Below, in pieces: positions 1 through 3,835 of a stretch of 35,158 bases of DNA. The notes beneath the pieces are model-generated. The model made no database searches. It saw nothing but the letters and a program-made list of their open reading frames with translations, and was not told the DNA's origin. Source of the stretch: a virus (lineage: Duplodnaviria; Heunggongvirae; Uroviricota; Caudoviricetes); IMG/VR virus record IMGVR_UViG_3300000176_000003, positions 64,001-99,158 of that record. The stretch is one strand, 5' to 3'. Both the position numbers and the translations under genes were made by a program. The number at the start of each line of letters is the position of its first letter. Positions within the stretch are counted from its first letter, which is position 1.

Positions 1-2
1 CG

Positions 3-326
3 AAAGTCGTATGCGTGCTTTGTCAATCATCGATGAAGGAACTTCACTCACATTTACTGAGGAAGCATAATATGACTGTAACTGAGTATAAAGCACAATT
101 TCCGGGGAACGAAACTCGTTGTCAATCACTCATCAAAGCACAAAAGATTATAGAATTTGATGGAACGTATTGGCATAATGAACAAGTTGCAAATCCAACT
201 GGGGAAAAAGAAAGAGACGAACAAATACTATTTTCAGGATACATGCTTCTACACGTATCAGAATTTGAGTACAAGAAAAACCGAGAGAAGGTATTGGAAG
301 AATGCATAAAATTTCTGATACAGTAG
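3..326 (+). CDS. Vsr-like/PD-(D/E)XK (EDxHD-type) homing endonuclease, 5'-partial and probably internally deleted, lying between halves of terL split intein 1
   Basis: The frame is open to the window edge (KVVCVLC...SHLLRKH, Zn-finger-like). It has IIEFDGTYWH...RDEQI..GY.LLHVSE motifs, and its 3' end overlaps the IntC start by 25 nt. Confidence 0.7.
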   Translation, partial: KVVCVLCQSSMKELHSHLLRKHNMTVTEYKAQFPGNETRCQSLIKAQKIIEFDGTYWHNEQVANPTGEKERDEQILFSGYMLLHVSEFEYKKNREKVLEECIKFLIQ

Positions 327-673
327 AACGAAAATTCATAGATAGTGTAGATATTGATGAATATGAAATCTGGACAGATTCTGGGTGGCAAGATATATCT
401 GCTATTCATAAAACTGTGGAATATGAACGTTGGATTATTAAAACAGAACGTGGGTTATATTTAGAATGTGCAGATAAGCACATTATTTTCAATGACAAAA
501 TGGAAGAAATTTTTATTGAAAATTGTATTCCACATAATACAAAGATTACAACAGAATATGGTTCAGATTTAGTAATAGAATGTTATAAGACTGATATTAT
601 AGAACCTATGTTTGATATTACCGTTGATAGCGAAGACCATAGATTTTACTCTAATGGCATTCTAAGCCACAAC
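302..673 (+). mobile_element. Split intein 1, C-half (124 aa), +1 Thr; N-half lies upstream of the window
   Basis: Block B LECADKH, block F MFDITVD and block G YSNGILSHN|T are present. There is no block A Cys1 in this ORF. Confidence 0.88.
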
Positions 674-1303
674 ACAACCACAGTGGCCGCGCTTCTTCTA
701 TGGTATATTCTTTTTCAAGATAGTTTCTCTATTGCCATTCTAGCAAATAAAGAAAGACAGTCAAGAGAAATTCTATCTCGTATTCAGCTTGCCTTTGAGC
801 ATTTACCTAAGTGGTTGCAACAGGGGGTTATCCAATGGAATAAAGGTAATATTGAATTAGAAAATGGTTCGAAGATTCTATCATCTTCAACATCATCATC
901 CGCTATTCGTGGGGGTTCGTTTAACCTAATTTATCTTGATGAATTTGCGTTCGTTCCAAATAATCTACAAGAAGAATTCTTCGCCTCAGTATATCCTACA
1001 ATTTCGTCTGGTCAATCCTCTAAGGTATTGATTACATCTACTCCAAACGGAATGAATATGTTCTATAAGATTTGGACAGATTCTGAAGAGGGAAGAAACC
1101 GATATCAAAGAGTTTCTGTACATTGGTCTGATGTTCCTGGTCGGGACGATGTCTGGAAAGACGAAACCATATCCAACACATCAGAACGCCAATTCGATCA
1201 AGAATTTAATTGTTTTTCCTCTGAAACTCTTGTTTATATAAACAATCAAGAACAAACCATAGGAGATTTATACGATGAGCTTATCAAAGAAAGCATTAAC
1301 TAA
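302..1303 (+). CDS. gp17: Terminase large subunit, middle fragment: IntC-1 + ATPase extein + IntN-2
   Basis: The extein begins TTTVAALLLW (right after the Walker A GK) and contains Walker B LIYLDEFAF and ITSTPNG. It ends QEFN followed by a Cys-initiated intein N-half. Confidence 0.93.
   Translation: MHKISDTVERKFIDSVDIDEYEIWTDSGWQDISAIHKTVEYERWIIKTERGLYLECADKHIIFNDKMEEIFIENCIPHNTKITTEYGSDLVIECYKTDIIEPMFDITVDSEDHRFYSNGILSHNTTTVAALLLWYILFQDSFSIAILANKERQSREILSRIQLAFEHLPKWLQQGVIQWNKGNIELENGSKILSSSTSSSAIRGGSFNLIYLDEFAFVPNNLQEEFFASVYPTISSGQSSKVLITSTPNGMNMFYKIWTDSEEGRNRYQRVSVHWSDVPGRDDVWKDETISNTSERQFDQEFNCFSSETLVYINNQEQTIGDLYDELIKESIN
1211..1300 (+). mobile_element. Split intein 2, N-half (30 aa, CFSSETLVYINNQEQTIGDLYDELIKESIN)
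   Basis: A block A-like CF..ET.V...I.DLY follows QEFN directly and is followed by TAA. Confidence 0.88.
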
Positions 1304-1580
1304 AATTATTACAAAAAGTGAGCTTGAATATCTTTATTTTGATAAATTAATGACTCTTGACGAAATTGGCAGACATTATGGATATATTGACAGACAGCCA
1401 ATTATGAGACTGTTCAAAAAACATAACATACAATCTAGAACAAAATCAGAAAATGCAAAACTTATTAATACCAATACCGATTTACCAAAATATATTGTTG
1501 AAAAGTTTTTAAAAGAAGATGATTATATCAAAAATCCAGAAAAAGTAGTAGAAGAATGTCTAAACTTCCTGAAACAGTAG
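1275..1580 (+). pseudogene. Homing endonuclease remnant: HTH domain plus last ~20 aa of a Vsr-like nuclease, catalytic core absent
   Basis: The N-terminal HTH resembles the repeats in 13051..14445. The C-terminus EDDYIKNPEKVVEECLNFLKQ matches EFEYKKNREKVLEECIKFLIQ of 3..326. No IEFDG.YWH motif. Confidence 0.7.
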
Positions 1581-1903
1581 TGTTAAATAAAAAGAATTTA
1601 AAAATTCTTACGCCAAATGGATATGAAACGTTTCTTGGTGTAAACAAAATCACAAAACCCCAATATGTTCATTTAAAATTTTCAAATGGAAAAGAACTTA
1701 AGTGTTCTGAAGATCATCCAATATTAACTATTGATGGTATAGTAAAAGCTAAAAATTTAGACAAAAAAACAGAAATCTCCACTAAAAACGGAGGTTGTTT
1801 TGTCGTATCTAAAAGAAACATAAAAAAACAAATTTTTCTTTATGATATTGTAAATTCTGGAAAAGACCATTTATATTACAGTAATGATATAGTTTCTCAT
1901 AAT
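1556..1903 (+). mobile_element. Split intein 2, C-half (116 aa), +1 Cys
   Basis: Block B LKCSEDHP, block F LYDIVN and block G YSNDIVSHN|C are present. The QEFx|CEFL site matches my recollection of AceL-/GOS-TerL atypical split inteins. Confidence 0.9.
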
Positions 1904-3835
1904 TGTGAGTTCTTAGGCTCTTCTAATACACTAATTGATGGAAAAAAACTTCAACAATTGACATATAGAACCCCACTATTTACTTCGGGTGGTGTAGATG
2001 TCTATGAGAACCCAGAGAAAAATAAAAAGTATATTACAGTAGTAGATACTTCTCGTGGTGTAGATATCGATTATTCTGCATTTATTGTCTTTGATGTAAC
2101 ACAAGTTCCATATAATATCGTAGCCAAATTTAGAGCTAATGATATCTCTCCATTACTTTACCCAAATATTATTCATCAAGTATCAACACATTACAATAAT
2201 GCATTAGCTCTTATAGAAACTAATGATATTGGACAACAAGTCGCAGATATTCTACATATGGACTTAGAATATGATGGTGTTATTGTAACACAAACCAAAG
2301 GTAGAGCCGGTCAAAAAATTGGTGGTGGATTTGGTTCTGGTGGAGGAAAATCTAAACCACAGTTTGGTGTTAGAACAACAAGGCAAGTAAAAAGAATTGG
2401 TTGTGGTAACTTTAAGACTCTAGTAGAGAGCGATAAACTCATTGTTAATGATTATGATCTTCTATATGAGATGGCAAGATTTATTGAAAATAAAGCCTCA
2501 TATGAAGCAGAAGAGGGTCATCATGATGACCTCGTAATGTGCTGTATTCATGGGTCTAATATGATTGAAACTGAGGATGGCCAAAAAACCATGCGATGGG
2601 TTGTTGAAAATAAGTATACCGGAAAAGTACTATCCTTAAATGCAGCGGGAGAATTTGAATGGAAATCTGTAATTGGCCATTCAGCTAAAGAGAATTCTGG
2701 AAAAAATAAAAAGACCTGGATTACATTAGGAGAAGCTGCCTCAGGAAGAAAGCGACTTATTTGTACTACAGATCATAAATGCGCTACAGTAAGTGATATA
2801 TTCAATCCAGAAATTGAATATTTAGAAGCCGACAAATTAGATGGAAAATATATTGTCAAATTTCCTAATACAAAAAAACATGGATTTCAAACTTTAAACC
2901 CAAGTTATAACAAAGATCAAGTTTCTGTTATATTGGGTATACAATTGGGTGATGGACATATTAACAGAAAGGGGAAATTTTCAACTGCTCATGGCGAAAA
3001 ACAAAATGAGTATTCTCGGTATATACAAAGTATATTGGGAGGAAACTTAACGTACAATAAAAAGAACCAATCTCGATTAGAATTTAATACGACAGAACAA
3101 ACACACAAATTGCGTGAGTTGATGTATATTGACGGGAAAAAAACTATAAAAAACATCTATAAGATGATAGACGAAATTAGTTTAGCTTTTTGGTATATGG
3201 ATGACGGACATTTAAAATTATCAAAAGGTTGCATAAATTATTCTGTAGAACTTTGTACCGATTCATTTTCATACGAAGATCATTTATTATTAAAAGAAGT
3301 TTTGTTTGAAAAATTCAATATAAATTCTAGTATAATAAACATAAAAAAATCTCCTATGCAATATAGACTAAGAATAGGAACTGAAAGTAGTAAAACCTTT
3401 TTTGATTTAATCGCTCCTTATGTATGTAAGAATATGGAATATAAAATTCCAGAAAATTATAGAACAATAGAATTAAAACCTATAAACAATTCTTATTTGG
3501 ATTATAGTATTGTAAAGGCAAATGTTTTTTATAGAAATCAAATGGGGCTGGAAAGCAAATTGTATGATATTGAAGTTGAGGGCAACCATAACTTTGTTGT
3601 TAACAACACTTTGGTTCATAATTGTGTATTGTTTGCGTGGCTTGTTAACCAATCATATTTTAAAGAATTGACCGATACTGATGTTAGAAGCAATTTAGTT
3701 CAAGATAATAATGCATTATTGGATGATGATATGCTTCCTTTTGGAATGATGGATTTTGGAGATGACGAACATGCTGAATGGAAAGCTGATCCGTTTTATG
3801 ACTTAGACTTTGGGCCACATAAAGATTATTTCTAA
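1556..3835 (+). CDS. gp17: Terminase large subunit, C-terminal fragment: IntC-2 + nuclease domain containing a cis intein
   Basis: The extein runs CEFLGSSNTLI...VDTSRG...IETNDIG...HDDLVMC|CVLFAW, giving the RNase H-like terminase nuclease motifs. Confidence 0.93.
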   Translation: MSKLPETVVLNKKNLKILTPNGYETFLGVNKITKPQYVHLKFSNGKELKCSEDHPILTIDGIVKAKNLDKKTEISTKNGGCFVVSKRNIKKQIFLYDIVNSGKDHLYYSNDIVSHNCEFLGSSNTLIDGKKLQQLTYRTPLFTSGGVDVYENPEKNKKYITVVDTSRGVDIDYSAFIVFDVTQVPYNIVAKFRANDISPLLYPNIIHQVSTHYNNALALIETNDIGQQVADILHMDLEYDGVIVTQTKGRAGQKIGGGFGSGGGKSKPQFGVRTTRQVKRIGCGNFKTLVESDKLIVNDYDLLYEMARFIENKASYEAEEGHHDDLVMCCIHGSNMIETEDGQKTMRWVVENKYTGKVLSLNAAGEFEWKSVIGHSAKENSGKNKKTWITLGEAASGRKRLICTTDHKCATVSDIFNPEIEYLEADKLDGKYIVKFPNTKKHGFQTLNPSYNKDQVSVILGIQLGDGHINRKGKFSTAHGEKQNEYSRYIQSILGGNLTYNKKNQSRLEFNTTEQTHKLRELMYIDGKKTIKNIYKMIDEISLAFWYMDDGHLKLSKGCINYSVELCTDSFSYEDHLLLKEVLFEKFNINSSIINIKKSPMQYRLRIGTESSKTFFDLIAPYVCKNMEYKIPENYRTIELKPINNSYLDYSIVKANVFYRNQMGLESKLYDIEVEGNHNFVVNNTLVHNCVLFAWLVNQSYFKELTDTDVRSNLVQDNNALLDDDMLPFGMMDFGDDEHAEWKADPFYDLDFGPHKDYF
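2543..3622 (+). mobile_element. Cis-splicing intein (360 aa) with LAGLIDADG endonuclease
   Basis: It starts CIHG and contains block B CTTDH, LAGLIDADG motifs LGIQLGDGH and LAFWYMDDG, block F LYDIEV and VHN|C. Confidence 0.92.

Follow-up and report, generated by a model that had tools for sequence, protein, structure and literature searches.

Vsr-like endonuclease 3′ ends as probable translation starts of two split-intein halves in a phage terL gene

For genes fractured by split inteins, Dassa, London, Stoddard, Schueler-Furman and Pietrokovski (2009; NAR 37:2560; PMC2677866) proposed that the 3′ terminus of the incoming element creates a downstream Met. In 15 loci of that study, the endonuclease gene runs with its 3′ end 6-69 bp into the coding sequence of the C-terminal intein part (IntC), and a Lake Gatun freshwater terminase locus shows an unusual split point and an IntC of 122 residues. 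The atypical split inteins AceL-TerL and GOS-TerL and the consensus intein 'Cat' are known from Thiel 2014, Bachmann and Mootz 2015 and Stevens 2017, as far as they are summarised in PMC11766414; how the atypical split originated was not found to be discussed in the accessible literature on these inteins. Gosselin, Arsenault and Gogarten (bioRxiv 10.1101/2025.01.02.630785) described non-canonical inteins whose homing endonuclease is coded in a different frame or on the other strand, and the Aeromonas phage Aeh1 arrangement nrdA-a / mobE / nrdA-b goes back to Gibb and Edgell 2007, as recounted in Dassa et al. (2009; PMC2677866). Here we analyzed a stretch of 35,158 nucleotides (nt), called the window in the following, which forms the final 35 kb of the 99-kb IMG/VR record IMGVR_UViG_3300000176_000003 of a T4-like phage (positions 64,001 to 99,158). 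A 30-nt module occurs twice in its terL gene, once in each of two split inteins. Very probably, this module represents the conserved 3′ terminus of a Vsr-like (EDxHD, DUF559-type) homing-endonuclease gene. Each intein contains one such gene; both genes have been gutted, with the 3′ end surviving as the putative start of IntC.

Two module copies at the breaks of terL

To complete the start of terL, 1.5 kb of the record 5′ of the window was also read. In this region terL is coded as three pieces (a, b and c), which are separated by two small open reading frames (ORFs) of 112 and 101 amino acids. The five neighbouring ORFs form a chain with overlaps of 83, 25, 29 and 25 nt; both small ORFs, termed endonuclease remnants 1 and 2 below, remain open. 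The features are listed here in window coordinates, with IntN denoting the N-terminal intein part.

92 nt 5′ of the window: start of IntN1 (CFSLNTTV..GELY)
1..70, + strand: end of terL piece a, with the IntN1 tail read into the +2 frame of the endonuclease remnant; stop at 68-70
1..326, + strand: endonuclease remnant 1, 112 amino acids; ATG 12 nt before the window
297..326, + strand: module copy 1; EECIKFLIQ-stop in the endonuclease frame, ATG (302) plus HKISDTV in the +2 frame
302..673, + strand: IntC1, 124 amino acids, ends SHN, +1 Thr; C-terminal half of the atypically split intein that occupies the Walker-A loop of TerL
302-1303, + strand: terL piece b, composed of IntC1, the middle extein and IntN2
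674..1210, + strand: terL middle extein (Terminase_6N)
1211..1303, + strand: IntN2, 30 amino acids, CFSSETLV..GDLY, followed by 9 residues from the +2 frame of the remnant and a stop
1275..1580, + strand: endonuclease remnant 2, 101 amino acids
1551..1580, + strand: module copy 2; EECLNFLKQ-stop in the endonuclease frame, ATG (1556) plus SKLPETV in the +2 frame
1556..1903, + strand: IntC2, 116 amino acids, ends SHN, +1 Cys; AceL-TerL/GOS-TerL/Cat family
1556-3835, + strand: terL piece c, composed of IntC2 and the C-extein
1904..3835, + strand: terL C-terminal extein (Terminase_6C), broken by a third intein at 2543-3622

The two copies, at 297-326 and 1551-1580, match at 25 of 30 nt, as the initial annotation had stated. 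No further 30-mer matched at 22/30 or more on either strand of the window. In 200 random first-order Markov sequences, best matches had a mean of 19.5 and a maximum of 22, and chance was rejected as the source of the match. The similarity is longer than had been given before: it reaches 39 nt further upstream of the module (25/39), 68 nt in all, and in BLASTP the copies are alike over 23 residues (E 6e-6). Right after the stop codon, it drops to background (10/30, 11/30 and 9/30). Dual coding was likewise confirmed at both copies. One frame carries the end of the endonuclease ORF and the +2 frame the start of the next terL piece, and the overlap is identical at both breaks, with the ATG placed 25 nt before the endonuclease stop and the first eight IntC codons lying inside these 25 nt.

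In piece a, the Cys of IntN1 directly follows the Walker-A sequence PRQVGK; about 28 intein residues lead to GELY and are followed by 25 read-through residues. Within their inteins, both endonuclease genes occupy the corresponding place, immediately behind the G(E/D)LY motif of IntN. The third intein (..LVMC|CIHG .. LVHN|CVLF, window 2543-3622) is contiguous, carries a LAGLIDADG_2 domain and lies in the nuclease domain of TerL.

Endonuclease remnants and ownership of the module

Scanning viral contigs with ORF 1 yielded 80 loci, whose homologous proteins mostly comprise 280-420 amino acids. Remnant 1 combines a ROS/MucR-type zinc finger with the C-terminal half of a Vsr-like/DUF559 domain. It aligned to residues 6-53 (the zinc finger) and 224-285 of the 285-residue protein of locus L026, with 170 internal residues gone; the match of its residues 52-112 to L026 residues 224-285 had an E-value of 2e-14. 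With 19.7 bits it stays below the Pfam DUF559 cut-off of 20.6, and full-length relatives reach 25 bits. The remnant keeps IEFDGTYWH and lacks the catalytic Asp of the PDF motif (the invariant D62 column), which falls within the missing 170 residues. Remnant 2 aligned to residues 7-84, the helix-turn-helix (HTH) region, and 368-386 of a 386-residue relative, which sits in a related phage with terL split at the same site, the same 25-nt overlap and an IntC starting with MSKLPESVV. Residues 3-80 and the last 19-23 residues are retained in remnant 2, and about 283 internal residues, including the entire nuclease core, are missing. A profile of the last 130 residues of the relatives, which cover the catalytic domain, matched I-Bth0305I (3r3p, E 8.7e-6) and the DUF559-like structure 3hrl. 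A phmmer search of PDB with a full-length relative gave no match, and only the catalytic-domain profile reached I-Bth0305I.

Homology to the Vsr-like/EDxHD family over the nuclease domain was thus found for remnant 1, and the complete catalytic core (PDF Asp, then E-x-D-G..H) in neither remnant. The initial annotation had placed Vsr-like endonucleases at both breaks, which describes the origin of both ORFs correctly; of the Vsr-like domain itself, ORF 1 keeps a part and ORF 2 (1275-1580) nothing. Judged from sequence, both small ORFs are internally deleted, gutted Vsr-like/EDxHD homing-endonuclease genes, the deletions being in-frame and internal in both, and the loss of the core predicts that neither remnant is active in cleavage or homing. 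In our reading, a Vsr-like endonuclease gene of a distinct subfamily resides in each atypically split terL intein, in-frame internal deletions have gutted both genes, and the surviving 3′ end would supply, via the +2 frame, the start codon and the first eight codons of IntC.

In a maximum-likelihood tree, the endonucleases of the second break (site 2, the AceL-type site) form a separate clade (100/100) from those of the first break (site 1, the Walker-A site). Since the site-2 endonucleases form a clade of their own, the remnants stem from different subfamilies; the first is characterized by a zinc-finger N-terminus and the Walker-A site, the second by an HTH N-terminus and the AceL-type site. 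The separate clades therefore indicate that the shared module is an old feature of the family rather than newly copied. That one copy lately gave rise to the other within this genome, through duplication or gene conversion between the terL breaks, is extremely improbable, although the uniqueness of the 25/30 match in the window might suggest it. The N-termini of the remnants match different subfamilies, zinc finger versus HTH, and copy 2 resembles the modules of unrelated phages (e.g., L040 and L024) as closely as it resembles copy 1.

Several observations place the module on the side of the endonuclease. The full-length relatives of 280-420 amino acids end with ..(K/E/Q/R)-C-(L/I)-x-F-(L/I)-x-x-stop, and all of 14 diverse family members share the Cys and Phe that the module encodes. 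The same C-x-x-F tail occurs beside canonical short IntCs, in free-standing copies, and where IntC starts 8 nt before or directly after the endonuclease stop; in the split relatives with such an 8-nt or 0-nt overlap, IntC begins with M-x-KFIE and has no eight-residue head. The overlap between endonuclease end and IntC start, for which the initial annotation had suggested a search in other split inteins, recurred in another 26 distinct loci; in these, IntC is coded in the +2 frame of the endonuclease, with its start 25 nt before the stop. Three divergent IntC types are involved. Walker-A inteins have heads of the form M-x-x-L-S-(D/E)-x-(V/I), and those of AceL-type inteins follow M-x-x-L-P-x-x-(V/I); the third type starts with MFSIFE and matches an intein C-end plus Terminase_6N in Pfam. 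Among the three types, DNA homology does not extend past the stop codon of the endonuclease. In the majority of split AceL-type IntCs, the start lies about 8 residues further on. The module is accordingly part of the endonuclease gene and not of the inteins, and because the tail evidence places it there, the eight-residue IntC head can be understood as an alternative-frame reading of the last helix of the endonuclease. In an AlphaFold model of the closest contiguous relative, VHKLSDT lies in a low-confidence linker (pLDDT <50 for residues 44-67), flanked on either side by the HINT fold with values >90. The eight head residues are thus predicted to be a by-product of the endonuclease C-terminal helix (..C-L/I-N-F-L-x-Q-stop) outside the intein fold.

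Junctions of other kinds were also seen. In class B loci with the 8-nt overlap, such as L015:1673-2704, IntN enters the endonuclease in the +2 frame and IntC exits in the +1 frame; such loci look as if they had come from the 25-nt class through a shift of one base close to the 3′ end and the recruitment of a new ATG (AAATG-G/A-TAA). In L052:1442-2689 (also L053-L060), IntN, an endonuclease of 415 amino acids and IntC lie in a single frame, parted by single stop codons, with the IntC ATG directly after the endonuclease stop. This looks like an in-frame nested endonuclease one step before or after fusion. Other endonuclease families occupy both split positions in relatives, namely T5orf172 at site 1 (L096:1806-2993) and HNH_3 and GIY-YIG endonucleases at site 2 (in the P0045 contig and at L097:4323-4994). 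Each of them shares 8-17 nt with the start of the downstream piece, and in L096 a decayed Vsr module persists.

According to the initial annotation, contiguous homologues should not already contain the IntC head segment. At site 1 they formally do: many read ..(M)xxLSDTVERKF, among them ..KNKLSDNVERKF in L090 and ..GVHKLSDTVERKF in the closest terL relative, and several have the Met. Most contiguous AceL-type inteins do not contain it. The segment ..LSDTVERKF.. might therefore have pre-existed in the intein, with the endonuclease ORF extending its 3′ end into it as in group I introns. Besides the many contiguous site-1-type TerL inteins, L096 fits this idea, since it still reads ..TLSNKIERKF next to a different endonuclease (T5orf172). 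We consider such an ancestral segment very unlikely nevertheless. The nucleotides coding for K-L-S in the intein are those of the endonuclease codons N-F-L, and this endonuclease motif is also present without any overlap and in free-standing genes. Moreover, one module heads three IntC types that share nothing past the stop codon. The linkers of the contiguous homologues are non-homologous and comprise 9 to about 70 or about 300 residues; those with the shortest linkers (P0074 and P0081) do not contain the segment, in L090 a decayed QKTNYLIM-stop is still legible in the frame of the endonuclease, and in P0090 the endonuclease tail EIIEKCISF is fused in frame. Because of the non-homologous linkers, the decayed tail of L090 and the fused tail of P0090, the contiguous site-1 segments can be argued to be secondary; they have the appearance of overprinted linkers or of scars left by re-fusion, and not of ancestral intein sequence. 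The contiguous AceL/Cat-type inteins mostly have short linkers, and P0129 carries a scar-like MLPGNII. In the closest contiguous relative, P0045, MQD.. and ..RDE.I.. in the linker may, as read at the protein level, be in-frame traces of remnant 1. An intein of the Walker-A type with ..L(S/H)xxV.RKF.. was also seen in the P-loops of DnaB-like helicases and SbcC-like ATPases (P0040, P0047, P0051, P0056, P0097-P0121), and its presence in several P-loop proteins suggests that the intein travelled together with the endonuclease, as one composite unit, from one P-loop site to another.

The IntC start and the origin of the two splits

The ATG is made up of the third base of an A-ending codon and the TG of the following invariant Cys codon. 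It is present in 27/27 split loci of the 25-nt junction type, counting both window copies and all three IntC types, in 16 of the 27 loci in which this position is unused, and in none of the six complete loci (plus one partial locus) in which the intein frame is read through the endonuclease. From these counts, we consider the ATG a common latent feature of AT-rich family members which becomes fixed when needed, and not a built-in constant. The "built-in restart cassette" of the initial annotation therefore stands insofar as the module is endonuclease-borne, and fails insofar as the start codon is not fixed in it.

The clearest sign that the module is retained comes from decayed loci. L093 and L095 keep 45 codons of the endonuclease 3′ end, L089 keeps 49 and L088 essentially the module only, and all four start IntC there. 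This persistence after decay of the endonuclease is the strongest indication of retention for terL expression, and selection for that expression may well be what preserves the module. In the same four loci, no open remnant ORF links up with IntN; the same start is preceded by gaps of 17-197 nt without coding function, which indicates that these relatives do not depend on coupling via an open remnant. A scan of the window for T4-type late promoters and sigma-70-like sites found none above chance in the terL cluster. With no late promoter inside the cluster, internal initiation on a polycistronic mRNA is likely, and the terL pieces are probably translated from one mRNA.

Some points weigh against the use of the module as IntC start as described here. 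The locus counts lack phylogenetic independence, and we infer from conservation alone that the ATG is the start actually used. Shine-Dalgarno-like AAGG/GGA sequences 11-16 nt upstream are common, not universal, and weak at the second window break. Mean third-codon entropy is about 1.09 bits in the overlap versus 1.27 bits upstream, a weak difference; since third-codon positions are barely more conserved in the overlap, the IntC frame adds little detectable constraint beyond the start codon. Finally, some contiguous relatives (P0005, P0007, P0013-15 and P0017) keep a Met at the ATG position, and a Met there is for this reason not diagnostic of a split.

With respect to the origin of the splits, six complete loci from phages of 33-56% GC are informative. 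In these, an intact Vsr-like gene lies at the atypical site, and the terL frame runs on the same strand in its +2 frame without a stop across 279-340 codons, giving precursors of 739-1299 amino acids. The overprinted endonuclease genes are:

L005:1856-2695
L009:1793-2698
L031:1781-2695
L036:1700-2722
L086:2072-3013
L097:2335-3297

The gene of L097 has EYHG in place of the invariant EFDG and may be inactive, with both frames intact. The number of stops in the +2 frame is 0 in the six loci versus 19-82 in the other 50 genes, and synonymous-codon shuffles of the overprinted genes gave 14-23 expected stops with a minimum of 6. In the tree, the overprinted endonucleases are intermixed with the split site-1 ones, and one split pair is nested among them. 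IntN and IntC share the +2 frame of the endonuclease at both window breaks and in 21/24 loci of the class, and the through-frame of the window contains 7 and 12 stops at the two breaks. The window inteins are split because these stops close the through-frame.

These findings bear on the gene-breaking model of Dassa et al. (2009), in which the endonuclease brings along a ready-made restart cassette and any insertion into a loop yields a split intein with a translationally coupled IntC. That the module is endonuclease-borne and that homology between the intein types ends at its stop codon agrees with this model, as do the latent ATG in 16/27 family loci even where it is unused, the chain of overlapping ORFs with two open remnants in the window, and the contiguous AceL/Cat-type inteins, mostly short-linkered and without the segment as predicted for a state before invasion. 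However, a shared frame of IntN and IntC is not required by insertion, and the six loci that are stop-free over the length of the endonuclease, the intermixing of overprinted and split site-1 endonucleases and the missing ATG in all six overprinted loci also speak against the model; the non-coding gaps before the module in decayed relatives show that open-ORF coupling is not needed. As the source of both window splits, gene breaking in this form appears unlikely to us. The shared frame likewise makes it questionable that insertion "automatically creates" a split, as the initial annotation had put it, and a contiguous overprinted ancestor fits this frame at least as well as invasion.

At the Walker-A site, the through-frame of a contiguous overprinted intein would later have been closed by stops. 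To pass from the overprinted to the split state, one stop plus the latent ATG is needed; in the opposite direction, dozens of stops would have to be lost with no advantage gained. The shared frame, the intermixing in the tree and the one-stop route suggest that the Walker-A split may descend from the overprinted contiguous form, which we regard as at least as likely as invasion at this site. Among the 150 best of 894 hits, no overprinted form of an AceL-type intein was found, and the through-frame route is therefore unsupported at site 2; there, direct invasion by the endonuclease gene according to the Dassa model is the simplest explanation. As a tentative general proposal, to which we give somewhat less than even weight, Walker-A TerL splits would have arisen from contiguous overprinted inteins by a single stop in the through-frame and not by gene breaking. 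The latent start 25 nt before the endonuclease stop, formed by the A-ending codon and the invariant Cys codon, would make this step viable at once, become fixed and outlive the endonuclease.

Comparison with known systems

Both breaks have the properties of atypically split inteins, i.e., an IntN of about 25-40 amino acids from the nucleophile and an IntC of >100 amino acids that ends with HN followed by Cys, Ser or Thr. IntC2 matches CatC (PDB 6dsl_B) with E 1.4e-22 and, like AceL-TerL, GOS-TerL and Cat, interrupts terL at FxQEF|C; unlike CatC, it has an eight-residue, endonuclease-derived head, and the alignment begins only at residue 9. IntC1 matched the characterised atypical split inteins weakly (E 3e-3) and belongs to a related but distinct P-loop intein family. 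The window inteins probably splice in trans, as suggested by their intact splicing motifs and the essential role of terL. A site-2 relative, the IntN of L070, has Ser as first intein residue (..QEFE|SVSAST..), giving the unusual pair Ser1/Cys+1 as reported for GOS-TerL. For intein engineering, the first eight IntC residues and the IntN tails would be endonuclease-derived filler that can probably be trimmed.

I-Bth0305I (Taylor et al. 2011, PMC3239194; 3r3p) has the D..E-x-D-G..H core in common with the relatives of the window endonucleases. It is encoded in a group I intron, whereas the window copies are incomplete, copy 1 being without the region of the first catalytic Asp and copy 2 without the domain. 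The six overprinted loci L005, L009, L031, L036, L086 and L097 resemble the non-canonical inteins of Gosselin et al. and have the same frame relation as both window breaks, in which, by contrast, the through-frame is closed by stops. In Aeh1 nrdA, as far as it is described in Dassa et al. (2009), an essential phage gene is likewise interrupted by a free-standing endonuclease gene, which extends with its 3′ end into the start of the downstream piece; that system differs in having no intein, an HNH endonuclease and pieces that assemble non-covalently.

The closest likeness is to the fractured genes of Dassa et al. (2009), with a host N-part fused to IntN, a free-standing Vsr-like endonuclease gene and IntC fused to the host C-part on one strand. 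This order was found at two terL sites, and the 25-nt overlap of endonuclease and IntC at both breaks lies inside the published range of 6-69 bp. The arrangement is thus real and widespread, and its principle was already published in 2009; the mechanism for atypical split inteins advanced in the initial annotation is partly supported, with its core anticipated there. What is new here is the fixed 25-nt junction, which is shared by two endonuclease subfamilies and three intein types, together with the ATG counts, the series of loci that retain the module, and the frame common to IntN and IntC. The junction, the ATG in 27/27 split versus 0/6 read-through loci and the same frame across the break provide handles for tests. 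In contrast to the loci of Dassa et al. (2009), one gene is broken twice and both endonucleases are gutted, which makes terL of this phage a doubled and decayed natural case of a selfish endonuclease gene supplying the translation start of a severed gene half, with the supplied piece outliving the endonuclease.

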